From the IMG/VR virus record IMGVR_UViG_3300033047_000016: a stretch of 64,000 nucleotides of DNA; one strand, given 5' to 3'. The position numbers were made by a program, and so were the translations under genes. This DNA is from a virus. Under the pieces are notes generated by a model. It saw only the letters and a program-made list of their open reading frames with translations, had not been told where the DNA came from and did not search any database. Shown here one piece after another: positions 29,245-52,213 of this stretch. Each line of letters begins with the position of its first letter. Within the stretch, counting starts at the first letter, position 1.

Positions 29245-30207
29245 TTAAGCCCGAACAATTCCTTCATACACGTCCTCAACGAAGTCGTCAATCCATACGC
29301 GGTCGGGCGCGGCAGAAAGTGGGGATTTATCCCCTATTGACTCCAGAATCTCAACTTTTTCGTCGAACGTGTCTAATATCTCGTCGATGTGCACCTCTCC
29401 GGCCCTGATTTTCATCAAGAATGGAAGGTTGACGCACGGAAATTCGATGAATCCGTGTTTGAACAACGAAATCCCTTGATCAGCGATGCGTACAGCGTGG
29501 TACATGGCTTTGCAGTCCATGCCACCAGCATCGCGCGCCGCCTTGGCTCTTTTACCTGCTTCGTCTACCGGTTTCTTGTAAATACGGTAGGCTTCAGCAC
29601 ACTTAACGGTTTCTGGGCACTGTCGCCCATATACATCAAGGTACGGTATGATGCGACCGTCTGGTTGCACCTTATCAACGAATTCTACTCCGTCGATGTC
29701 CTCAAGAGCACTTGCTATATCTGCAACCTTTTTGATCGTGCCATTGCTGTTTGCATACATGGCCAACAAAGCTACAACTGCTTCATACGTCTCCAAACGC
29801 TTGCCGCGCATCGAATATCTAACCGCCTGTCCCTTGCAATATCCAACGAACGCCTTTGAGTTGTTGTTGAGGATTTTGTCTCTATTCTGCACGATCCTGT
29901 CCCAAACCCAATTCTCTAGGATAAGTTGGAGTGGATCGGTTTCGATAAATAGCAGTTCAACCGGAATGGTCTGCATATCTGCTGCCAATTGCAGATAACG
30001 CTGAAGCTCAAAGCTCTCTACGTCAACATCGTCGGCGTCGTTTCGTGTCTCCTTCGATCCAGTAGACTGGCTCGTGATTAATGTTCTCTTCCCCAGAAGA
30101 ATTTGTCTTTTCGTGGGGAGGTGCACTGCTTTGTAGTCGCGATCTGAGTCTGCGGTATTTGTACCGTACAGGCGCGATCCTGCCAAGCATCTGAAAATCT
30201 CTGTCAT
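29245..30207 (-). CDS. DNA polymerase beta-superfamily nucleotidyltransferase (T4 NrdC.11 / RlaP-like)
   Basis: GSRLYGTNT..SD.DYKAV.LP, ELLF, KAFVGYC..QA..Y, DCKAMYHAVRI, L.KIR.G. Confidence 0.85.
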   Translation of the reverse strand: MTEIFRCLAGSRLYGTNTADSDRDYKAVHLPTKRQILLGKRTLITSQSTGSKETRNDADDVDVESFELQRYLQLAADMQTIPVELLFIETDPLQLILENWVWDRIVQNRDKILNNNSKAFVGYCKGQAVRYSMRGKRLETYEAVVALLAMYANSNGTIKKVADIASALEDIDGVEFVDKVQPDGRIIPYLDVYGRQCPETVKCAEAYRIYKKPVDEAGKRAKAARDAGGMDCKAMYHAVRIADQGISLFKHGFIEFPCVNLPFLMKIRAGEVHIDEILDTFDEKVEILESIGDKSPLSAAPDRVWIDDFVEDVYEGIVRA

Positions 30208-30477: not shown

Positions 30478-30885
30478 AGGTGAGGGATTCTGTTGCTAGG
30501 TTCCCTCGGACCCCCTCACTGATCGGCGTCTGCATTTAATCCTTACGGATTAAGCTGCGATTGCCATTCCAGTAGGTGCTGCATTTACATTTGCTGCATT
30601 TACTTAAGTTCACAGTCCTAAGACTATTTGCCCAGATAACGTTTAGGCCAACCCGACACGCCGCTTTCCCTATTCCATCCTGTCGATCCTAGTTCGCCCC
30701 CATCAAAAGACCCTTTCGAGGCATCGCCAGAATACCCCGCATGGAGCACCTAACCTCTTCCCTCTCCGCGAGAAACGGATGTGAGCGTAATGTCTCTCCC
30801 TCGTAAGGGCCTTATGGTGGAGGCGTCGGGTACTGCCCCCGAGTCCAGAAATGTCTTCACGATTGAAGATATACGTGTGTTTCGT
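30478..30885 (-). ncRNA. ssrA: Two-piece (circularly permuted) tmRNA; tag AANVNAAPTGMAIAA
   Basis: Acceptor piece ...GACTCGGGGGCAGTACCCGACGCCTCCACCA ends at 30815; coding piece starts GGGGGCGAACTAGGATCGAC at 30701 (G3-U70); tag ORF 30597-30550 ends AIAA-stop; AACCTAGCAACAGAA motif. Confidence 0.92.
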
Positions 30886-30940
30886 ACGAACCAATATAGA
30901 GTGATTCGTTTAGTATGTCAACCTCTGAAAAGCCTCAAAG

Positions 30941-32359: not shown

Positions 32360-33228
32360 AGTAGCCTGAGAATACAGCGTACAGTGAGAACCTTCTGGAC
32401 CGTACCAAACCCGTTTCACAGGGCATGTTAATCCTTCTTCCACATGCGTGCCGAAGCTACACACGTAGTCCTCAATGGTGCGATTTATAAAGGTCTCGCG
32501 TTTGACCTGTCACCATGTGCTACTCGTCTGTTGATCCTCCGCCTGCCTTCCGACAGTTATTCACCGCTAAGCGCTTACGTTTTCTCTTCAAACAAACATC
32601 GTCGCCTTGCGAGCTATGATGCACCGTGTTCCAAAAGGCACGGTATTAACCACCTTTCACACATGACCGAACTAGTCTTTTGCTTTTATATGACGTGAAG
32701 GATTTGAACCCTCTCCGACAGCGTTGAAAGCTGTTGCTCTACCAATGAGCTAACGAAGTTAACCCCAAAGATGTGCTAGTCCGATTGCTCCGAAGGTTTT
32801 TGACCCTAAGAATACAACACACCTCATGTCTTTCGGCTTGCGACCTAATTAACGGCTCTTCAGGTCTCCGGGGATTATCTCCCCTTATTCCCTTGAACTG
32901 CATGCTGCCCTCTGCCGCGAAGCATCGAACTAGTCATGCCACCTATTGATCATCATCGCTCGTCCGGCTGGCATGTCATGAGCGCAGTCGCCAAACTGCT
33001 TCTATCCACCCTTTTGGGGCTTCAATTATCCTTTCGGACACATGACCCAGACTTACCGACTATCGCCACTCTGGTAAGTGACGCACAACGCTACGGATAT
33101 TCCCGGCGTCGTCGATCTAGGCTTGCATAAATGGACTGTTTCCAGCGGATACTTGGGAAGCACCCTTTGGGCCTGTTGCCAGACTTACCCTTGAAGACCT
33201 CATGCGGCCTTATTCCCGAAGGAACTCC
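32360..33228 (-). ncRNA. GOLLD-like large structured RNA (~870 nt) with embedded tRNA-like domain
   Basis: Own promoter TTGACA-17-TAGAAC (33260-33232); ORF-free; many GNRA/UUCG hairpins; blocks GUGUGUUGUAUUC..GCACAUC, GCAAAAGACUAG, GAAAGGUGGUUAAUAC, CGUAAGCGCUUAGC, GAGUAG, GGUUCUCA..UAUUCUCAGGC recalled as GOLLD-like; tRNA-island context. Confidence 0.65.
32690..32759 (-). pseudogene. tRNA-like domain with TCA (opal-reading) anticodon inside the GOLLD-like RNA
   Basis: GCTC-ATTGGTA-GAGC, ACAGC-TTTCAAC-GCTGT, GAGGG-TTCAAAT-CCTTC; acceptor stem only 3 bp, no CCA. Confidence 0.7.
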
Positions 33229-42089: not shown

Positions 42090-42280
42090 GTGCTCAGTCC
42101 CTTGTGTGTGTGTCTATACATTCAATATAGGGATGGGGTAGGTGATTCGCAACCCCTAATATGCACATTATGCTAAATACTTGCATTCGCTGCCCTGCCT
42201 TATATGCGGGCCATACAGGGCGGGTTGCCTGTGGCATGGGTGGCAGGCCATGGGGCAGGGCTTGGCCCTGCCCTGCGCTC

Positions 42281-42556
42281 TCAGCCTTCCCGGCGTAGGT
42301 GGTAAAGATAATCGCCGAGTCCGTCCTGTGCGTCCTGCGCTGCGCTCTCCTTACCTTTCAACCACGTGTCAATCATGGCCTGTACTTCCAGCCCATCAAT
42401 GTCATAGTATCCCGCCCAGCGGTCACCCTCTGCGCACCATGCCTGAAACTCTTCATATAACGCATCTGGCATGTCCCCCATTGTTTCATGATCACAAACA
42501 AAGAGTTCGATTGTTTCGGCTGCTACCTGTGCGTCTGTGGGGATGATGTGGCTCAT
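42281..42556 (-). CDS. Small acidic early protein
   Basis: AAGGAA RBS behind early promoter. Confidence 0.65.
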   Translation of the reverse strand: MSHIIPTDAQVAAETIELFVCDHETMGDMPDALYEEFQAWCAEGDRWAGYYDIDGLEVQAMIDTWLKGKESAAQDAQDGLGDYLYHLRREG

Positions 42557-42653
42557 GGGATAGTTCCTTGTGTGGGTGTGTCTCTCTATACCCTCAATCT
42601 AAGGGTTGCGAGGATGATTCGCAACCCCTAATATGCACATTCTGCTGAATACT

Positions 42654-43040
42654 TTAAGGGATGGCCCAAACAACCGGCGGCTGGCCTTCATTGGCAAGCA
42701 TGATCAGGCTCGCCACAGTGGCCACAGGCGCGCCTGTATCCTTGCGATAGAAGTGACCCGCCTTGTATGGGTTATAAGCCACTAGAACGGCGCTGTGCAG
42801 GCGCTCAACAAAAGCTGTCCAGCCTGTCACATCGTCGCTGATTATACCATGGTCTATGCGCGCAAAGGCGTGCACATTCTTGCGCCCTTCTTTGACCACG
42901 CGCAACCGGCCCGATTCTCGCACAACCATAGCCGCGCCATGGCTGGCAATCACAACCCTTGCATGCGCTGTCACGCGCCCCGTTTTACGCGATCTGCAAG
43001 ACCACACTTTCTTGTGTAGGTTGTAGTACACATCGGCCAT
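42654..43040 (-). CDS. Conserved phage early protein (VYYNLHK..WS...V.E.GR.RV..E..KNVHA...YNPYK)
   Basis: Recognisable conserved phage motif set. Confidence 0.75.
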   Translation of the reverse strand: MADVYYNLHKKVWSCRSRKTGRVTAHARVVIASHGAAMVVRESGRLRVVKEGRKNVHAFARIDHGIISDDVTGWTAFVERLHSAVLVAYNPYKAGHFYRKDTGAPVATVASLIMLANEGQPPVVWAIP

Positions 43041-43279
43041 TATGAGCGAGTCCATTATGCCAACCCTTTGGTGCAAAGGGCGGCAAGGGTCGCAACCGCG
43101 AACACATAGAAGGCGGCTGGGTATACCTGCGCCAGTACCTGCGCCTGCTGCAAGATGTCGGGGTTTGCTGTAATGAATTCCATTATCTCAGTTCCTTGTT
43201 TAGCGTTTCGTTAAATTCAGAATAAGGGGTAAGGCGATTCGGGTCAACCCATAAAATGCACATTCTGCTAAATTCTTTT

Positions 43280-43414
43280 GTTCCCCATTTGTTCTCTGCG
43301 TTTTCTCTTTGTTCACCTTTTGTTCTCCTTTTGTTCTTTAGATTGGGAACAAAAGGTGAACAAAGGGGGAACAAAAGGTGAACGGCGAGAACAAAACGTG
43401 AACAAAGGGTGAAC
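43280..43414. repeat. Palindromic array of alphaproteobacterial LexA (SOS) boxes: 3x GTTC-N7-GTTC then 5x GAAC-N7-GAAC
   Basis: GTTC at 43280, 43291, 43311, 43322, 43333; GAAC at 43347, 43358, 43369, 43380, 43389, 43400, 43411. Confidence 0.8.
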
Positions 43415-43456
43415 ACGCCAGACAAAGGAAATTGGCGGGTTTCCCCGCCTTTTTCC

Positions 43457-43669
43457 TTATATGTCTTTTAAGCGGCTGTCATATCCCGTTGGGCCTTCCT
43501 GCCAAGCGATCATCCGGGCTTTTGCCTCAGTGCTTCCAGTATCGGCGCGGATCAAGCTAACGTGTGCGTCAAAGTCATTTCCGCTTGCTTTTGCTTTAAG
43601 AAAGTTTTGAAAGTGCATTGCGTCTTGTGCGTCGCGGTTGGTGGCGGTTGTGAGAATGATGCGGTTCAT
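43457..43669 (-). CDS. Small early hypothetical protein
   Basis: RBS and early promoter upstream. Confidence 0.65.
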   Translation of the reverse strand: MNRIILTTATNRDAQDAMHFQNFLKAKASGNDFDAHVSLIRADTGSTEAKARMIAWQEGPTGYDSRLKDI

Positions 43670-43752
43670 GTTGCTATTCCTTGTTTAGCGTTTCTGATAA
43701 CCCTTTCTTGCATAGCCGGTGATTCTGGTCAACCCATAAAATGCACATTCTG

Positions 43753-43989
43753 CTAAATTCTTTTGTTGAGGCGACTCCATCTGATATTGTCCCGGATATT
43801 GGCGGCGCGGCGGCTGGCGAGCCAATACACCGCCAGTGCAAGGCCGCAGGCGACGGTTGCCGCCAATGCGGCGCTAACCCCTATCAGGGCCGCGCAGGGC
43901 AGGTCTATCCCCATGCTCTCGACTATGGCAAGCAAGGCCAGATCAGTTTCATAAAAAGGCGCGGTTGGGGTTGTGCAAGCTGTATACAT
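43753..43989 (-). CDS. Small membrane protein
   Basis: TM helix. Confidence 0.55.
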   Translation of the reverse strand: MYTACTTPTAPFYETDLALLAIVESMGIDLPCAALIGVSAALAATVACGLALAVYWLASRRAANIRDNIRWSRLNKRI

Positions 43990-44302
43990 GATTCAGCCCT
44001 TTCCATTTGTGCGGCTGGCAATGATAGAGGCGAACGATTCGCCGTCCATGGCACGGGCCAATTCAGCGGGGTTGCGCGGTGTCAGTATTTCGACGCTCTC
44101 AGTGATTTCGATTTCTTTGGCCATTGTCTCAGTTCCTTGTTTTGTTTCAGTCCGGGCGGGCCGCTTTACCCCGCCCCGGTTCTTCCCCTTGTGCAGTCCG
44201 CCGGGGTAGCGGCTGGCGGGTTCTAATCCGCTCTATACCCTCAATCTACAGGCAAGGATGATTCGGGTCAACCCATAAAATGCACATTCTGCTAAATTCT
44301 TT

Positions 44303-44598
44303 TTAAACGTCGATTGCGTGGGTGTTGCTGATAACAACCGCAAATTCTTTGGGTTCATTTGCCGCCAGCCATGTCAGGGCATCAAGGTGATTCTTGCTAC
44401 CCTCTTGCGCCCTCTTGATCACAAAGGCGTGGGCCATAGGATCGCCGGAAAACTGGGCGCTTTCATCGTGCCGCTCCAAGCGCCACGTTGTCCCATCCGG
44501 GTTGCCGCTTGCGTCGCTGATAAACCATCCCTCACTAAGCGCCGATTCATAATCATAGTTTTTTGACGGGTCCGCGCGATATTCCTTTGGGCCGCTCA
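44303..44598 (-). CDS. Small early hypothetical protein (MSGPKEY...)
   Basis: RBS AAGGAA; coupled to upstream ORF. Confidence 0.6.
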
Positions 44599-44824
44599 TG
44601 GCTTCATTCCTTTCATAGTTTGCGCCACAGTGTCGGCAAGGTCCAGAGTGAACCCGGAAACAAAATTGGTTGCCAGAGGGGAAACAAACATTACGAACAG
44701 GGTAATGACCATTATGGGGAAGAGATATTTCATTGTCGCGTTCCTTGTTTTGCGTTTCTGATAACCCTTTCTTGCATAGCTGGTGATTCGGGTCAAGCCC
44801 TAAAATGCACATTCCGCTAAACTT

Positions 44825-45065
44825 TTACATTCCCTCCAAATCTCGCATAATCTCGGCATCGGTTGGCGCTTTCCAGTTCAGGATTTTCCCGGTTACAACG
44901 TCAATTTCCAGAATGACATAATCCCCATAGTGTTGCCCCGGCATAAAGCTGGGCACGTATCCGTCACCGGCTTGGATAGTATCCCCCGATTCGTTGGTCG
45001 CAACCGCGTTGCAAAGGTCGCTACACTTGGCAGTGATTTCGATCACAGTGATTTTCCGTTTCATA
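44825..45065 (-). CDS. Conserved phage early protein (AKCSD...DGYVP.FMPG.HYGDY..L.ID..TG.ILNW)
   Basis: Recognisable conserved motif. Confidence 0.7.
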
Positions 45066-45263
45066 TTAGAATTCCTCGCCTTGGTCTTGCTCACATGAAA
45101 GCCAGCCCTCGCCCATCAGGGCATAAGCCGGAGTCAACTCTTCAAGCAATTCGACGCAATCGCTACCGGTCAAATTTGTGTCCAGCGCGTAAACGTAATT
45201 CCCGCCTTGCCCCTCAAGATCACCGCTTTGAATGAACAGTGTGAAAAAAAGTGCAAACTTCAT
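45066..45263 (-). CDS. Small hypothetical protein
   Basis: 65 aa, RBS AAAGG. Confidence 0.55.
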   Translation of the reverse strand: MKFALFFTLFIQSGDLEGQGGNYVYALDTNLTGSDCVELLEELTPAYALMGEGWLSCEQDQGEEF

Positions 45264-45410
45264 TTTGTGGCCTTTCCGGCGGGGGTTTTCCCCGCCTTTG
45301 TTTGGGTGGTGCCCCTCGCCTTTACCGGGGTCCGCGTTCTCTTTTGATAACCCTTTCTCGCATGATTCGCGGCATGTGTCAACAAGAAATACACATGCCG
45401 CTAAACTATG

Positions 45411-45797
45411 TCAGGCGGCGCGGGCGCTTGCGCCCATCGCCTCCACATAGCGGGCGATGTTTTCGCCCTTGTGGATACCATTGCAGAACAGGAAAAATTC
45501 CACATCATCGGCACGGGTTGTCAGCCCTTCCCCGTCCAGTTCCCACCGCAAGGCGGTTTCAAAGGAAACGCCAAACGACTCCGCGTGCGTATCAAGGCGA
45601 TCATTCAGGGCGACCAGTGCCGCGCGCTCTTGCACGTCCGCGTCACGCATCACGTGCACAAGGTCAGTGCACAAGGCGTTAAACTCGCGCACCTGTTGTA
45701 GGGTTGTCAGTGCGTCCCAGCGGTTGCCGTCTACAGGGCGCACACCGTGCACATCTTTGTGCAGGTCGCTGTAAGTTCCGAAGTCAATCCGTTCCAT
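45411..45797 (-). CDS. Early hypothetical protein (YSDLHKDVHGVRP)
   Basis: Conserved-looking SDL.KD..G.RP motif; RBS AAGGAA. Confidence 0.7.
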   Translation of the reverse strand: MERIDFGTYSDLHKDVHGVRPVDGNRWDALTTLQQVREFNALCTDLVHVMRDADVQERAALVALNDRLDTHAESFGVSFETALRWELDGEGLTTRADDVEFFLFCNGIHKGENIARYVEAMGASARAA

Positions 45798-45870
45798 TGT
45801 CTCAGTTCCTTGGTTTGTGTTTCCGATAACCCTTTGTCGCATGACAGGCGATTCGGGTCAAGCGAATAAG

Positions 45871-46062
45871 TTTAGCAGAATGTAAATATTGTTCTTGACC
45901 ATTGCCACCGAATCGCCTATTCTGATTATGAGGTCAGGAACACCGGGTGCGGTTAGTAGGGGACGGGTTGGGAGTGCGGAGTCCGCCCTTTAAAAAAAAG
46001 GAACAAACAAGGAGCAAAACGTGAACAAATAGGGAACGATAAAAAGAGAACAAAACGTGAAC
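45871..46062 (+). repeat. Module copy 1: upstream motif + promoter + G-rich ~60-nt element + LexA boxes
   Basis: TTGACC-17-TATTCT; GAGGTCAGGAACACCGG...GGGACGGGTTGGGAGTGCGGAGTCCG; GAAC at 46001, 46023, 46034, 46048, 46059. Confidence 0.75.
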
Positions 46063-46118
46063 ACTTTGAGGCAAAGAAAAGGCGCGCCGGTTAAGGCGCG
46101 CCTGATTTGTTGCGGGTT

Positions 46119-47018
46119 CTACTTCCCCTTAAACCCCGCAAGGCTCTCTGCAAGGGTCCACAGGTCGCGGTTAAGCTTAGCCGCGCCACCTATACCCGTG
46201 ACGGCTTGCACCTTGGCACGGCGCGCCTTGCCGTTGCTTCCAGTGATCCAGCCGCGTTGTCCGCCCTTGATGCAATTTTCTTGCACAATATTCAAGGCGT
46301 GCCACAGGGTGTTATGGCGATCCTCGGAACGGCGCGCCCGCAACAAGTCCAGCGGTTGAACCGCCGCGCGGGTTTCATTCAAAACCGGGCGTTCATCCGA
46401 GTCCAGATCATACGCCGCCGGGAACCGCAACAAGTGAGCGGCGCGGGCGTAAATCATCGCCTCGTCACGGTCCAGCCGGATTGCCTTGAATTCATCAATT
46501 TGTGCCAGCACGCGGGGGGCCATTTCAAGGATTGTTTCCGCGCCATCTTTCACCGACTCGATCACACCCTTGCCATTGTGACGGACACTTACCGGCGCGA
46601 AGGTGTCGCCAGTGAAAAGGCCATTGAGGCAAACAAAGCGAAACACGCCAGCGATCATTTTATAAGCGCTTGTGCCGTCGTTTGCATTGGTAAGGATGAT
46701 TTCAAAGGCGCGGCCCTCTGTATTGGTAAGGGAACGGTGACGCAAGCGCAGCATGTGCCGGGTAAACCGTTCCTTGCCTTCAATGCGGGTCCGCGCCTGT
46801 TGTGCGTATACCGGTTGAAAGTCAGCCGCGCGCAGTGCTGTAAGCACCTTGCAAGTGGCGATAGGCACAAAGCGGTCAGACCGCGACTTATGCGCCTCAG
46901 TGGCAAACAGAGCCGGAACCGCCGCCGCCAGTTCAGAGTCTGACAAAGGAGTCACGCCGTCAGGGGATGCAATCGCGCCACCGTTTGACATTCCGTTCAT
47001 GAAGCGAGTGTAAGACAT
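46119..47018 (-). CDS. DUF932-family protein
   Basis: P..FA...H.SRS.RF..I.T, F.RH.LRLR, EIIL.N.NDG.SAY...AG.FR.VC.NGL, LW...N.VQEN..KGG. Confidence 0.9.
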   Translation of the reverse strand: MSYTRFMNGMSNGGAIASPDGVTPLSDSELAAAVPALFATEAHKSRSDRFVPIATCKVLTALRAADFQPVYAQQARTRIEGKERFTRHMLRLRHRSLTNTEGRAFEIILTNANDGTSAYKMIAGVFRFVCLNGLFTGDTFAPVSVRHNGKGVIESVKDGAETILEMAPRVLAQIDEFKAIRLDRDEAMIYARAAHLLRFPAAYDLDSDERPVLNETRAAVQPLDLLRARRSEDRHNTLWHALNIVQENCIKGGQRGWITGSNGKARRAKVQAVTGIGGAAKLNRDLWTLAESLAGFKGK

Positions 47019-47280
47019 TTTATATTCCTTTTTGTTTGGGCTGGCGTTTTGCCTTCCCTACAATCTTTATTGCATAGGCCAAAGTGATTCGCAAGATTTA
47101 AATTGCGTCAAGCTAAAGTTTTCTTTCTACTGAACACTCTTTAGCAAAGTTAATTTTGTGGGTTGACAGCACCTGATTCGGTTTGGTATAATGGATTGAC
47201 GACGTATGCGCACACGGCGAATCGTTATAGGTCGTCAGTCCATTTTAGCACAACGAATCAAGTGCGGTCAAGTAAATAAG

Positions 47281-47449
47281 TTTAGCAGAATGTTAATTTT
47301 GTTCTTGACTGCCAGCCCCAAATCACTGTAATCTAAATGTGAGGTCAGGAACACCGGATGCGGTTAGTAGGGGACGGGTTGGGAGTGCGGAGTCCGTTCT
47401 CTTTTTTTTTGGCGGGCAAAAAGAACAAAACGTGAACACTTTGCTGAAC
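47281..47449 (+). repeat. Module copy 2 (promoter + G-rich element + T-tract + LexA box)
   Basis: TTGACT-17-TAATCT; element 47341-47396; GAAC 47423/47434. Confidence 0.75.
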
Positions 47450-47485
47450 AAAAAAGCCCGCGTTAGCGGGCCGATTCGTTCTGTT

Positions 47486-47785
47486 TCAGATGTTAACCAC
47501 CCTGTCAAGGTTAAAGGAAAAGCCAAACTTTTCCGGGCGCGTGTTGTGAAAAAACACGTTGCCGTGATGGGCCAGCGCCTGCCGCGCGTTTTCTGAGCGC
47601 TTGAGGGATTCGGGCGTCGCCTTTGGGCCTGCCGAGCCACCTACAAGCCGCTTGTAAACCTTTGGCATGCCGGTGCGTCGCACCACATCGCCGTTCTTTT
47701 TGGCGAAAACCACTGTGGTGATTTTTGCGCCGCGTTTTGCCAGCTTGGCTTGGACGGTCGCGCGGGGGAGAAATTCGGTTTTCAT
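47486..47785 (-). CDS. Small basic early protein (WYL_2/SH3-like, V.F.KKNG.V.R)
   Basis: TVVFAKKNGD.....G...FSF.LDRV. Confidence 0.6.
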   Translation of the reverse strand: MKTEFLPRATVQAKLAKRGAKITTVVFAKKNGDVVRRTGMPKVYKRLVGGSAGPKATPESLKRSENARQALAHHGNVFFHNTRPEKFGFSFNLDRVVNI

Positions 47786-48172
47786 GTTGTTCCCTTTCCG
47801 GGGGTTGCGGGTTGGCTTGTTTGCCTTCCCTATATCTTTGATAGCATAAGCAAAATGATTCGCATAGAGCTAATTTCACTTATGCTAAAGTTTTTTCACT
47901 TAAGCCTTCCAGCCTTTCCCGCCTTCAAATTCGCGCCGATTCCCTTTGGCGCGCCGCGCGGCCTTGTGCTGTTCTTTGGCACTGTGGCGGTCGCGAGTCT
48001 TGTCGCGGTTAGTTGATTCATCTTGCTGAGTCCGTTGCTCAAATTTTGGCTGTTTCATCTTTTCTTTCCCTTCAGATTGGCAGGGGAATCATCCCCCGCC
48101 TTGTTTCAAAAATGCCCTAAAACTACATATAAGGCAAGCAATAATAAAATGAGTCCTATAGCGATTCCTTTC

Positions 48173-48919
48173 CTAGTTTGCGCGCCGCTCAAACGCCGCG
48201 ACCTTGCTTGTCATTCCATGCGCGGGAATAAAAACGCTTGCCCGATTCGGGCTGGACAATCCACCGCAGGCAAGGCACGCCGCGCAATTTGTTTTTGCGC
48301 CCGCCTCTTTTGACGCTGGACAAAGGAATTCGCCTTTAACAAGCGACTCCGCCTTTGTGCCGACGCGAAAGGTTCGATACCCCAACGCTTGCGCCCATTG
48401 CGACTCGTGCACGTTGTCAGCGCTTGCCATACAATAGCGCGCAAAGCGTGAATCGCATTCTTTCCACTGGTGAGTGTAACCCGTACCGCGCGCCGCAAGT
48501 TTAAGGATACGGTCCCAAACATGGAACGGGACCGCCGCAGGGTCACCATAAGCGCCGAGTCGAACGTTGCGACCCGCCAGCAAGGCTTGCGCGTTATCCC
48601 GCTTTATACGCTTGTAAACGCCGCGTTTTGCCGTGCCAAAGATATTCAAAGGCGCTTGAAAAATTGTCACGTAACAGGACCGCCCCACGTTTTTACCGTC
48701 CACAATTGTGCCCCGATGTGGACACGCGCCGCAGATGCTGGCATCCTCGCCAGTTTGGACCGCCGTTGTTGGTTTCACGTCTGCCCGAAGAATCCAAGTC
48801 TGAACCAGATTGCCCGTTTTTGCGTTAGTCGATCCCGTTTTGAGACCGGTCGCAATCAACATAATAGGCGCGCCGTCAATCCGACTCTTGCCTTCCCAAA
48901 GTATTGCACCGTTTGCCAT
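48173..48919 (-). CDS. Conserved Cys-rich phage protein (gp88-like)
   Basis: N.KTG.LVQTWIL, ICG.CPHR, CYV, VRLG.YGDPA, GYTHQW, MASAD, C..C.AC. Confidence 0.75.
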   Translation of the reverse strand: MANGAILWEGKSRIDGAPIMLIATGLKTGSTNAKTGNLVQTWILRADVKPTTAVQTGEDASICGACPHRGTIVDGKNVGRSCYVTIFQAPLNIFGTAKRGVYKRIKRDNAQALLAGRNVRLGAYGDPAAVPFHVWDRILKLAARGTGYTHQWKECDSRFARYCMASADNVHESQWAQALGYRTFRVGTKAESLVKGEFLCPASKEAGAKTNCAACLACGGLSSPNRASVFIPAHGMTSKVAAFERRAN

Positions 48920-49067
48920 TTTGTATTCCTTTCAAGAATAGCGTTTCGATGATTCGTTTATTGCATATCCTGAAAAGTATAGCAAGGAAAACTTTGCGCT
49001 TGCTATACTTTCCCCTATATGCTAGAAACGAATCAAGTTAACCGGCTAACAGGGAAGGACCCGCGCC

Positions 49068-49232
49068 ATGGAAAACTTTACTACTCTTCACAATGCGAGC
49101 GATGCAGACATATGCGCGTATTTCGATACGTTGCCGAATCTGACTGTCATGGAATTGGCGCGCCGCACTGGTAAGACTGTTCAGGAAGTCAAGCGGATTC
49201 TGATCCCAAAAAATTCAAGGGGGGAGTCGTGA
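49068..49232 (+). CDS. Small HTH-like protein, 54 aa
   Basis: LTVMELARRTGKTVQEVKRIL; AAGGA RBS; divergent promoter. Confidence 0.6.
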   Translation: MENFTTLHNASDADICAYFDTLPNLTVMELARRTGKTVQEVKRILIPKNSRGES

Positions 49233-49426
49233 TGAAACCACTTTTTTACGACGTCCCTTGTGTCAATCATGTGTCGGAAAAAACCGGCATGCTGTATATG
49301 ATTTTTGACTGCCCATTTGCCGCGATGTCTTTTGCCGCGCGCAATGGGTTGCTGGTCAATCGTCGCCAATGGGATTCAGGTATTTTTGCCCGCACGCGAA
49401 TCGGTGATCTTAGGGGCGTTTACTGA
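49229..49426 (+). CDS. Small hypothetical protein
   Basis: Coupled to upstream ORF. Confidence 0.5.
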   Translation: MMKPLFYDVPCVNHVSEKTGMLYMIFDCPFAAMSFAARNGLLVNRRQWDSGIFARTRIGDLRGVY

Positions 49427-49581
49427 TGGCGCGCCCTATTGAATTGTCAAGTCATTACCAAAAAGGATTCCGTGACGCGTCGCGGGGTTCTTTTTATGAT
49501 CCGCCCTATTGCGGACACATTCAAAAAGAGGAATACCTTGCCGGGTTCGATGCAGCTAGAAACAATTTAGCAGAATGCTAA
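49426..49581 (+). CDS. Small protein with RMF-like pattern, 51 aa
   Basis: YQKGFRDASRG...PPY......EEYLAGF. Confidence 0.45.
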   Translation: MARPIELSSHYQKGFRDASRGSFYDPPYCGHIQKEEYLAGFDAARNNLAEC

Positions 49582-49776
49582 TTTTGTTCTTGACAGCCCG
49601 CCCCGAATCACTGTAATCTGAATGTGAGGTCAGGAAAGGCGCGCCGCCCGCGCCCGGTACGGGACGGTTTAGGAGTGCGGAATCTGTTCTCGAAAACAAA
49701 AGAACAAAAGGGGAACAAACCGTGAACAAAAGGTGAACAGAACAAAAGGGGAACAAACCGTGAACAAATGGTGAAC
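49566..49776 (+). repeat. Module copy 3 with six perfect LexA boxes
   Basis: TTGACA-17-TAATCT; element 49626-49686; GAAC at 49702, 49713, 49724, 49735 and 49740, 49751, 49762, 49773. Confidence 0.8.
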
Positions 49777-49837
49777 AGATTTCTAACCTTCGTGTGTGTC
49801 AAATCCGCAACAGTTGCATTCTCTCCAGAAAAATCGT

Positions 49838-50038
49838 CAGGAATCAAAAACGGCGAATCGTCTAAATAAAAATGACGACTCGTCAAAACCGTCGCGCGTC
49901 AAAACGACGACGCGTCAAAACAAAAACGACGACGCGTCAAAACAAAAACGGCGAATCGTCAAAACAAAAACGCGAGAGAGTCAAAACAAAAATGAGTGAT
50001 CGTCAAAAGAAAAATGCTCTCCCGTCAAAACGAATCAC
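49838..50038. repeat. 22-bp-period iteron-like array (GTCAAAACAAAAACG...)
   Basis: GTCAAAA at 49914, 49936, 49958, 49980, 50002, 50024 (exact 22-bp spacing) plus 49882 and 49898. Confidence 0.85.
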
Positions 50039-50290
50039 CCTCACCACCAGCCGAATCAGTCCAGCACATCGCCCGCTACGCGGGCCTTCAGCAGTACACA
50101 CTCAGATGCGTGCTTCGCACCCACCTTCGTCAGTGTTGGTAACCCGCAAACCAATAGCTCAGCAAACAGCCGAGCACACCGCAAGCAACCCTCTGGCTTG
50201 TCAGAGCAACCGATCAGCCTAAGAACTGAACAGCAGGATAACCTAACAAGTGAGCACGTTGATACTGTCCCGCGTCAGCGGGCACGTTGA

Positions 50291-50689
50291 TCACATGTCG
50301 TCGTCGTGTTGCCACGATGGGTGCCTGTTCGGATGGTACTTTGAATTGTAGTGTGGGAGCCAGTCAGCGTCAGTCGATGGGAGCCATTTGTATGGCCTCA
50401 CATGCTTGTACTTTTTTGGCCTGACGATGGCTTCACGCTGTACCAAGAGCACCATCAAGGCAATGTGCTTGGGTATCGCCGCATAGCCGTTGCAATAGCG
50501 TTCAACAGTGGCCCTGTTCAGCCCTGCATATCTATGGAATTCTTTGATGCCCTGCTTAGGTCCCCAGATGCTTTCGATGATCGCGTGCATGTCTTCAGGC
50601 CACATGTATCCGATCTTGCGACCACGTGAGTCTGTGATCCACCAATCAGCGCGTGGGGCTTCTTTTGTCTGGTCGAGTTTAAATGACAT
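50291..50689 (-). CDS. HTH-containing hypothetical protein
   Basis: EF.RYAGLNRATVERY.NG..AIPK.IAL. Confidence 0.6.
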   Translation of the reverse strand: MSFKLDQTKEAPRADWWITDSRGRKIGYMWPEDMHAIIESIWGPKQGIKEFHRYAGLNRATVERYCNGYAAIPKHIALMVLLVQREAIVRPKKYKHVRPYKWLPSTDADWLPHYNSKYHPNRHPSWQHDDDM

Positions 50690-50808
50690 CGGGGTATCCC
50701 TTAAGGTCGAGAACTGATCACAACTGATCATATATGCACAGTTAAAGCGCGTTAGCGCTCATATCTGCATGGTTATGGTTCTATAGCATGAATCTTTATA
50801 GCAATCAA

Positions 50809-50980
50809 GACCCCAAGCCCTCTCCGATTCGGTAGGGTCCCCGCCCCTTCTTCGATTCGTATGGGTCCCTCTGCTGATTCGTTTTTATACCCAAGCCCTC
50901 TTTGATTCGGATGGGTCCCCCTCATGTCAATACCCCAAGCCCGATTCGTTTATTATGGGTCCCTGCGGTGATTCGTTTTA
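50809..50980. repeat. Interspersed repeats ACCCCAAGCCC / GATTCG / ATGGGTCCC
   Basis: 3 CCCAAGCCC, 6 GATTCG and 4 GGGTCCC copies in 170 bp. Confidence 0.75.
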
Positions 50981-51553
50981 GGTGGGGTGGGTAATTATGT
51001 TGCGTACTTATTGACAGTGTTAAGCGATTGTTAGGCGCGTTAGCGCCCCTTAATTCACTGTTTTTCGTGTAGTTGTGCTATTTTCAGGGAAATGTCACAT
51101 CTTTTTGAGTTTTGTGACATTTTATATTGTGTTAAATCAATGGTTTACAGGAGGGGGTGATTCGGGTACGGTGATTCGTGCCACTTCATGGTTTTTCATG
51201 GTACTGCCTGATAAAATGTCACAACATATACATCCTGACAAAAACACGTAAAAGTGTCAGAGATTATTCTCATGTGATAAATTGGCCACAGCCTACCGAT
51301 TCGTTACCGATTCTTACGCAAGTGATTCGAACGACGATTCGCTCGCGCCCGGTGTTTAAAGTGGTCTTTGCAAAGTCAGCGAATGCTACTCCAAGCAAAT
51401 TGCAAACCTGCAAACCCTGCCGAACTCGTCAGTTCAAGGGCCAGAATAGCGTCGTCCAGCGCCTCACTCTTGGTGTCTCTGCGCGGTCCAAAGAACAGCC
51501 GTCCGTACACAGTCCCATAGTACCCAAGGGGACCAGCGACGATTATGATTGGA

Positions 51554-52213
51554 TCAGTTTGCATTGTACTTCCTTATGTTAATTTTACTGTTGGTGCGAT
51601 GTCCTGCCGTGCCAAAGGCTTCATGGAAAGACGTCCACGCATTATCCTCTGTCGGTGCCGGGTCGAAGGTCCAACCAATAGAGTCGTACGTCTCACACAC
51701 CCGCTTAACAATAGCCACTTTTGGCATCGCGTGGCCTTTTGTGCCATTGCATTTTTTACAAGATGGCATGAGGTTGTCGCGCAGTCCAAATCCCAGATGC
51801 CGGGGGAATACGTGATCCACGGTTACGCTGTTGAAGGGTACCTTATTACCACAAATGTAGCACGTCTCATCTGCTGCCTGCCATAGCTTCCATACAGTGG
51901 CGCGGCGGTATGTGCGCTGACGATATTTTTGATATTGACGCTTACTGGCGGCGCAATATGTGATCAAGCTTTTCAACGTCTTCGGTATGGTGTCCCACTG
52001 ATCCAGTGGAACCTCAAACCTCACACACATTTCCCGAACTCGACGGGGTAGCCATTGTAAATTCGGTTGGGTCCCTTGCTTATCATCCTGCATCGAAGTC
52101 AGCCTTTTTGATATCAGTTCCTCGAATGTCCATTGCGTATTTTCCTTTCTGTGATGGTCTCGTTTCGAATGTTTGGGGTGGTTGTTGCTTCCTTGTCCTG
52201 ACAGTTTTCGCAC
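51554..52213 (-). CDS. HNH endonuclease
   Basis: CYICG.....TVDHVFPR..G....DNL..SC..CN..KG. Confidence 0.82.
   Translation of the reverse strand: MRKLSGQGSNNHPKHSKRDHHRKENTQWTFEELISKRLTSMQDDKQGTQPNLQWLPRRVREMCVRFEVPLDQWDTIPKTLKSLITYCAASKRQYQKYRQRTYRRATVWKLWQAADETCYICGNKVPFNSVTVDHVFPRHLGFGLRDNLMPSCKKCNGTKGHAMPKVAIVKRVCETYDSIGWTFDPAPTEDNAWTSFHEAFGTAGHRTNSKINIRKYNAN

Follow-up and report, generated by a model that had tools for sequence, protein, structure and literature searches.

Is a module that recurs three times among the small genes of a phage, and in which no reading frame is conserved, the gene of an RNA or a DNA element whose transcription is incidental? This question is raised by a 64,000-nucleotide (nt) stretch of viral DNA, IMG/VR record IMGVR_UViG_3300033047_000016 (hereafter the window), whose source is a large siphophage of Rhodobacteraceae. 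Its plus strand carries three such modules, at 45871-45992, 47281-47403 and 49566-49693, each composed of a promoter, a G-rich element of 59-64 nt and an array of 11-bp repeats containing GAAC. A first reading of the letters (the original prediction) had proposed that the modules produce a small RNA, with the RNA and the array joined as one duplicating unit. All three copies, with promoter, G-rich element and array, are present where that reading had placed them, and comparison with related sequences leads us to conclude that the modules are very probably genes of a structured RNA family of ~65 nt.

The comparison rests on a family of homologous elements. The 21-nt core of the element was matched three times in the window, compared with no match in 100 shuffled sequences. 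A 20-nt core gave three matches each in the examined regions of phages DSS3_MAL1 (MAL1) and MD18, and was found in 11 further viral contigs, all of which also carry the 5′ segment and the promoter, neither of them specified by the search pattern. A looser pattern retrieved 95 metagenome loci, with 65 distinct sequences being true copies, all of which carry the parts that this pattern left unspecified, and 40 being chance matches. A covariance model was built from 35 gap-free copies; it yielded 134 matches (93 distinct) in the collected loci and just the three copies in the window.

The strongest sign of an RNA is a hairpin, termed P2, that follows the 5′ segment. In the gap-free alignment of 35 copies both sides change at all six of its pairs, 93.8% of the cells are paired, none of 500 shuffles reaches the observed score, and slid controls collapse. 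The result was the same on 93 distinct sequences. For the whole structure, 74 doubly changed cells were counted in the 35-copy alignment, compared with 19 in shuffles. Moreover, the six column pairs with the highest mutual information are exactly the P2 pairs, and RNAalifold predicts P2 unaided. Across the family the hairpin has 4-6 pairs of variable sequence, often with a 6-nt loop containing GGA. Within the window, copies 1 and 2 have a 4-bp stem and copy 3 has an unrelated 6-bp stem that is still paired. Thus P2 is a helix kept through compensatory changes in homologues, as befits a structured non-coding RNA, and the structural conservation on which the original prediction had staked itself is found here.

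The strand that folds can also be told from the alignment. After P2 come an invariant GUA and a G-rich 3′ domain, the pyrimidine-rich 3′ strand of which pairs back onto G residues. This 3′ strand shows only C/U variation at three positions opposite G, with G-U pairs in 13-14 of the 35 copies, and one purine of the 3′ domain varies between A and G only, opposite U in one model. On the opposite strand these G-U pairs would become A-C mismatches, so folding is assigned to the plus strand. About 38 positions of the RNA, whose composition is 46% G and 17% C, are invariant, compared with flanks that have diverged beyond recognition.

The upstream edge of this conservation coincides with a promoter. 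We aligned 67 distinct upstream regions on the first conserved base to produce a promoter logo. The -10 hexamer spans -12 to -7 and has the general form TAnnnT (T at -12 in 64 regions, A at -11 in 66, T at -7 in 60), and TTGAC spans -36 to -32, with T at -35 in all 67. Apart from GAATC near -20, the sequence separating the two varies. From +1, seven bases are invariant and eleven nearly so. As invariance begins at +1, conservation starts at the promoter-predicted transcription start. Copies 1 and 3, like most of the 67 upstream regions, have GAATC itself at about -21 to -17, whereas copy 2 has AAATC. With its flanks (C before, G after) GAATC reads as YGAKTCK on the other strand. Haakonsen and colleagues (2015, PMC4647560) reported activation by GcrA, a sigma-70 cofactor, of promoters with methylated GANTC sites that fit YGAKTCK, one cluster of sites being narrowly centered at about -20. 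The promoters described here carry the motif of this GcrA/CcrM type: a GANTC with YGAKTCK-like flanks at about -20 of a sigma-70 promoter. They resemble the published promoters (PMC4647560) in having GANTC centered near -20 between -35 and -10; however, the likeness covers the promoter only and not the RNA, and copy 2 lacks the G of GANTC. From the match to GcrA sites we infer that the RNA may be expressed early and may depend on the CcrM/GcrA system of the host.

Part by part, the three modules in the window agree in plan and differ in detail. The promoter of copy 1 (45871-45929, plus strand) comprises an upstream 12-mer (45871-45882), TTGACC (45895-45900), GAATC (45910-45914, about -20 to -16) and TATTCT (45918-45923); its spacer, from TTGACC to TATTCT (45895-45923), is 17 nt, and it was called by a promoter scan. 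The promoters of copy 2 (47281-47340, plus strand; 12-mer 47281-47292, TTGAC 47305-47309, AAATC at the GANTC position, TAATCT 47329-47334) and copy 3 (49566-49625, plus strand; 12-mer 49566-49577, TTGACA 49590-49595, GAATC 49605-49609, TAATCT 49614-49619) have a spacer of 18 nt, counting a six-base -35. Both were missed by the promoter scan because the -10 matches the consensus at only three of six positions. The upstream 12-mer (beginning at 45871, 47281 and 49566) is not confined to the module: seven promoters of the minus strand, at 42166-45405, have it in front of them as well, and it therefore marks a promoter class of the phage, not the module. The RNA of copy 1 occupies 45930-45988 on the plus strand (model match 45930-45992, 62.4 bits) and is followed by TTT and eight A. 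That of copy 2 occupies 47341-47399 (plus strand; model match 47341-47403, 61.6 bits) and ends, as originally described, in a stem and T-run, the nine T at 47402-47410 being called terminator-like. Copy 3 (49626-49689, plus strand; model match 49626-49693, 68.9 bits) has neither a T-run nor an A-run after the RNA. The three copies in the window are mosaic: copy 2 has its far-upstream part and its RNA in common with copy 1, and 93% of its promoter in common with copy 3, from which it differs in the first hairpin.

The RNA does not appear to code for protein. No reading frame is conserved, and a 34-codon frame spans copy 1 only. Family members range from 62 to 69 nt, do not differ in length by multiples of three and share no frame, and the RNA is therefore non-coding. 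Together with the compensatory changes in P2 and the conservation from the predicted +1, this bears out the proposal that the plus strand encodes, in several copies each with a promoter, a small G-rich RNA that is non-coding. It is not a transfer RNA (tRNA) or transfer-messenger RNA (tmRNA), as ARAGORN found no such gene in 45700-50100. Nor does it belong to a known Rfam family: at gathering thresholds, Rfam 15 gave only tRNAs, tmRNA and GOLLD in the whole window, and the Rfam check that had been suggested, when run on 45800-50100 with E-values up to 10, gave no match overlapping the elements.

Outside the window, the element has a narrow distribution. Region 44500-52000 shows similarity, with 69-75% identity across roughly one tenth of its length, to only DSS3_MAL1, Phaeobacter phage MD18, DSS3P8, vB_RpoS-V10 (V10), RpAliso and Rhodobacter phage RcXuper. 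Scans of the whole records revealed three copies in MAL1, three in MD18, four each in DSS3P8, V10 and RpAliso, and none in RcXuper; one complete viral contig of 139.5 kb had one strong and one weak match. When copy 3 was compared by BLAST with 50,697 phage records, matches came from only five, all of them isolated phages of marine Roseobacter bacteria (MAL1, MD18, DSS3P8, V10 and RpAliso). Within one genome the copies are homogenized and mosaic. When the exact core was sought in 185,579 bacterial genomes, one per species, none was found to hold the full element. Three core hits there covered the 3′ hairpin only, scored 14.6-20.3 bits and lay in unrelated contexts, so that we regard them as chance and reject a bacterial origin; the viral hits L004, L009 and L014 are chance matches of the same kind. 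Judged by these comparisons, the family is specific to this phage group, old relative to the group's divergence, and multicopy in every complete member except RcXuper. It is also new, being absent from Rfam 15 and from the annotation of the five published phages, where no annotation lies beneath the matches. The MD18 paper does not mention a small RNA, promoter or repeat, and full-text literature searches found no description of this RNA.

Two variants of the arrangement were found in relatives. A second type of RNA (type B) has its 5′ half and its final 11 nt in common with the element (type A), with a different sequence between them that has its own small hairpin. In many metagenome contigs, type A and type B elements are convergent, each with its own promoter and with their 3′ ends 11-24 nt apart (for example, L016:391-539, L025:1757-1905, L080:4000-4148, L003:8274-8422 and L060:6674-6823). 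Many of these pairs have between them a 12-bp palindrome with a GANTC center, which in L080 results in three GGANTCC-like sites 18 bp apart. The other variant occurs in RcXuper (L115, 37080-42756, minus strand of the locus), where equivalent intergenic gaps hold five copies of a different conserved module of ~175 nt. This module lies on the strand opposite the genes and has the same kind of promoter (TTGCGAATCG-type) and a small hairpin with a GGA loop. Since it sits in corresponding gaps, position has been kept though sequence has been replaced, and it may be a replaced or very distant counterpart of the element.

What might such an RNA do? In the function that we rank first, transcription by the host sigma-70 polymerase would begin, as sequence comparison indicates, with the first G of the invariant 11-nt 5′ segment, at promoters that appear to be of the same class as those of the phage early genes, usually with GANTC near -20. 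The RNA would be made from the first minutes of infection, from three to four genes at once, and would act in trans, its invariant purine-rich unpaired segments (several GGA, AGGAG-like) binding and titrating a conserved host or phage factor. This factor could be an RNA-binding protein or a pyrimidine-rich RNA, while the downstream GAAC arrays would be DNA sites of a separate, probably phage-encoded binder. An RNA that binds a conserved partner in bulk is placed first because there are several genes per genome, early-type promoters, a small size, ~38 invariant positions and purine-rich unpaired segments. The statement as a whole, a phage-specific family of structured RNA genes that supplies an early trans-acting decoy, is tentative, at somewhat under an even chance; the decoy step, taken singly, is more speculative again.

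Several observations weigh against this proposal. A T-run occurs within 16 nt of the 3′ stem in only 23 of the 67 distinct copies, including copy 2; copies 1 and 3 lack it, and hence their 3′ ends are undefined. The form of an intrinsic terminator, a GC-rich stem directly followed by a U-run, is accordingly seen in copy 2 and in 23/67 of the family and not in copies 1 and 3. Folding energies of single sequences do not improve on those of shuffles (z from +0.4 to -0.6), so that the case for an RNA is a comparative one. The 3′ fold is ambiguous, as three alternative pairings have 81-99% paired cells and none shows two-sided change. One is a long stem whose loop has 16 nt (94% paired), another combines a short outer stem with a three-pair hairpin on a near-palindromic 9-mer (88% and 99%), and the last is a terminator-like stem that suits copies 2 and 3 (81%). 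A fourth model, from RNAalifold, is a 5′/3′ closing helix of columns 4-6 with 39-41, which fits the A/G-only variation at column 40 yet excludes the long 3′ stem. Comparison favors none of the four, and since the 3′ domain does not vary on its G-rich 5′ side, no pairing there can be proven. Turning to function, no complement of the conserved loop was found in the window: with up to three mismatches there were 18 matches compared with 25.7 expected, and the exact ones were the elements only. The five GGA motifs (in a type A copy with the common P2 loop) are not clearly above what 46% G predicts. Of 301 alphaproteobacterial genomes sampled, only 62 yielded a CsrA, and the host family is not distinguishable in this sample. 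Finally, the recurrent fixed distance to the repeat arrays and the invariant G-A-N-T-C in the 3′ domain could mean a role in cis or at the level of DNA. Outside P2, mutual information gave no convincing tertiary pair or pseudoknot. By-eye likenesses to loop E/sarcin-ricin (GAA and AGUA strands flanking P2), to the 3′ strand of 5S ribosomal RNA (rRNA) and to a possible two-layer G-quadruplex had no supporting helix and were set aside.

The unit of the arrays is 11 bp, GAAC plus an A-rich stretch. On the plus strand, array 1 (45999-46065) has ~6 units at an 11-bp period, and the first hairpin past copy 1 and this array is a two-way terminator-like hairpin at 46080-46103 that ends the minus-strand DUF932 gene. 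Array 2 (47421-47452, plus strand) has three units, followed by the terminator hairpin of a minus-strand gene at 47455-47472, and array 3 (49698-49777, plus strand) has eight, with a 38-bp unit present twice. A fourth array, at 43280-43414, has two arms in opposite orientation and no adjoining RNA element. Among the 32 arrays in element-carrying loci, 12 begin 9-14 bp past a same-strand element and 20 stand alone. MAL1 and MD18 have the RNA element without arrays, and in the L015:8140-8100 region, L031, L054 and L055 a different 11-bp iteron (AATGTG, then G/T, then C) takes the array position. Depending on the copy, element and array are separated by a T-run or by an A-run. The idea of one duplicating unit is supported only in part: the 12 adjoining arrays speak for it, but the array-free phages, the lone arrays, the other iterons and the mosaic copies speak against it, and the arrays are a DNA feature separate from the RNA.

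The rival that best survives is a cis-acting leader, in which transcription through the folded RNA into the A/T tract and the array serves the downstream DNA, either by activating or priming a replication-type site (through an R-loop or primer, as in T4, T7 and ColE1-type origins) or by being stopped by an iteron-bound protein. The 9-14 bp distance, seen in 12 independent cases, speaks for it, as do the different 11-bp iteron in the same place in other lineages, the interchangeable A-run and T-run before the array, which look like a property of DNA and not a terminator, and the 46% G and 17% C of the RNA, which favor RNA-DNA hybrids. However, the RNA exists without arrays in MAL1 and MD18, 20/32 arrays, including that at 43280-43414, exist without the RNA, and read-through would be pointless in convergent element pairs 11-24 nt apart. 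A primer or R-loop, moreover, leaves the covarying hairpin and the ~38 invariant bases unexplained. We consider a cis-acting leader unlikely.

Slightly less likely still is a base-pairing regulator or a self-associating RNA. Here, the invariant 5′ segment or the 3′ loop would pair with a pyrimidine-rich target (anti-Shine-Dalgarno-like, CCUCC loops of host small RNAs or phage mRNA), or two RNAs would pair through the near-palindromic 9-nt segment of the 3′ domain. The long invariant unpaired stretches, including AGGAG, suit such pairing, the center of the 9-nt near-palindrome varies freely, and the two RNA types, being convergent neighbors in many contigs, would be co-produced. Yet the shortfall of complementary sites in the window given above tells against it, and ~38 invariant positions far exceed what a seed region needs.

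It is improbable that the RNA and a LexA-box array form a single unit, with the arrays absorbing host LexA and the RNA serving as a second decoy. The alphaproteobacterial LexA site is GAAC-N7-GAAC (cited in PMC3091678), the form also used for the Roseobacter-group bacterium Dinoroseobacter (PMC6473078). The array units fit this motif, of which the window contains 19 occurrences compared with 2.6 expected, 17 of them in the four arrays at the 11-bp period, and the RNA and the array repeatedly adjoin. However, the motif specifies just the two GAAC blocks, eight bases in all, so that any 11-bp GAAC repeat fits, and the array units conserve extra positions beyond what the site requires. The placement is not that of a LexA operator either: the arrays do not overlie promoters and are found 70-150 bp downstream of +1 or away from the elements. 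In relatives the motif is not retained, another iteron or none being present at the array position. Because of this last observation, the arrays are probably better explained as sites of a lineage-specific, probably phage-encoded DNA-binding protein than of host LexA. As short GAAC direct repeats at one helical turn, with several arrays per genome, they resemble both the ori/crr iterons of phage P4 and alphaproteobacterial LexA boxes, and differ from the latter in lying away from SOS promoters. Some array units contain what we take to be the reverse complement of the P4 octamer.

Least probable of all is an element that works as DNA only, as protein-binding or methylation sites (GANTC in the promoter and the 3′ near-palindrome) or as a recombination cassette of the early genes with incidental transcription, for although G-A-N-T-C is invariant at alignment columns 56-60 while its N takes all four bases, an extra palindrome of the same kind between convergent pairs brings the sites to three at 18-bp distance, copies within a genome are homogenized and mosaic, and GANTC is concentrated at 48-52 kb, the compensatory changes in P2 and the one-strand G-U pairs are marks of a folded single strand and conservation begins at +1 of a well-kept promoter.

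Known systems offer partial parallels to the RNA family. The put RNAs of phage HK022 are cis-acting antitermination elements of ~65-70 nt with two stem-loops, located directly past early promoters, present in more than one copy per genome and in need of no reading frame. The element described here is likewise of similar size, promoter-adjoining, multicopy and frame-free. In contrast to it, put lies 5′ of the operons to be read through, whereas copies 1 and 2 have no same-strand genes downstream; there is no sequence similarity, and relatives of the window phage have convergent pairs. The layout of a put-type antiterminator, placed between a promoter and terminators before same-strand genes, is not seen at copies 1 and 2. 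The sponge RNAs CsrB, RsmY and RsmZ, which are abundant, are also small and non-coding, with several GGA in loops or unpaired parts, as the present RNA has, including the P2 loop of most members. However, no Rfam model matched here, the GGA count is not above composition, and several subfamilies, including all three window copies, have a P2 loop without GGA. T4-type phages carry promoter-plus-stem-loop cassettes (PeSLs), which are repeated early-promoter cassettes among small early genes, homogenized and mosaic; they are oriented like the genes and lack a conserved RNA of 65 nt. The elements are similarly repeated early-promoter cassettes, scattered, homogenized and mosaic. Unlike PeSLs, they mostly oppose the neighboring genes, and the transcribed part is the most conserved piece of the cassette.

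Most small RNAs known to be encoded by phages come from those of enterobacteria and Pseudomonas, and for very few is a fold backed by sequence comparison. The family described here has ~90 distinct sequences, compensatory changes, a start fixed by the promoter logo and 3-4 copies per genome. Being unannotated in five GenBank genomes, it is a candidate for Rfam. Because its carriers include cultivable pairs (Ruegeria pomeroyi DSS-3 with DSS3P8, V10 or RpAliso, and Phaeobacter inhibens with MD18), it is directly testable. In addition, the promoters make up a clean natural set with GANTC at -20, suited to asking whether the onset of transcription in a lytic phage is coupled to the CcrM/GcrA cell-cycle system of its host. 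There is a small chance that the RNA represents a new class of phage effector, either a bulk early G-rich fold that captures a conserved host factor, such as a regulator of translation or the end of 16S rRNA that carries the anti-Shine-Dalgarno sequence, or, together with the iterons, several transcription-primed replication starts. If so, the mechanism would be one undescribed for alphaproteobacterial phages, in a group that also encodes GOLLD, tmRNA and ~30 tRNAs.

In the window, these latter features lie upstream of the modules, with ~30 tRNA genes at 15884-38327, an RlaP-type RNA-repair nucleotidyltransferase gene at 29245-30207, a two-piece alphaproteobacterial tmRNA at 30479-30925 and a GOLLD RNA at 32363-32825 (163 bits); capsid, portal and large terminase genes are also present. 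The neighbors of the three modules are small minus-strand genes without assigned function, one of which is a DUF932 gene by Pfam (46119-47018, minus strand). In all carrier phages, the elements are found within a block of small genes near the terminase, and these are presumably early genes. The elements mostly oppose the neighboring genes, the RNA promoter standing back to back with a gene promoter. The original prediction had all the modules pointing against minus-strand genes. This describes copies 1 and 2, which face the 3′ ends of convergent genes and have no same-strand genes downstream. The rule has exceptions, as copy 3 comes after three small plus-strand frames. A further exception occurs in DSS3P8 and V10, where one copy lies ~115 nt 5′ of a conserved 248-codon gene on the same strand.

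A few other features of the region were observed. The ~300-codon gene that is DUF932 by Pfam in the window has RNA elements on both sides, pointing against it, and a like layout is present in at least four unrelated contigs (L003:8601-9497, L034:2596-3504, L060:5589-6491 and L098:2113-3024), where the gene was recognized solely from its size and position. An 87-bp near-perfect palindrome (47174-47260) separates the DUF932 gene from RNA copy 2 and is overlapped by a plus-strand consensus promoter at 47163-47192 (12/12) and a minus-strand promoter at 47271-47242 (10/12); in Rfam it had only a spurious microRNA-like match. A second repeated promoter/leader type, serving minus-strand genes, was seen on the minus strand at 43700-43740, 44760-44796, 45346-45382 and 45825-45861. 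It consists of TTGAC, GAATC immediately after it and a conserved purine-rich stretch ending GGGTTATC, with no good -10 at the usual distance, and the gene promoters of RcXuper have a similar conserved stretch. Lastly, region 48000-52000 is rich in GANTC, with 44 sites in 4 kb compared with ~15 expected (the window average, 248 in 64 kb, equals the expectation from composition), and many of these sites lie within repeats, namely 22-bp iterons at 49842-50031 and repeats at 50805-50966.

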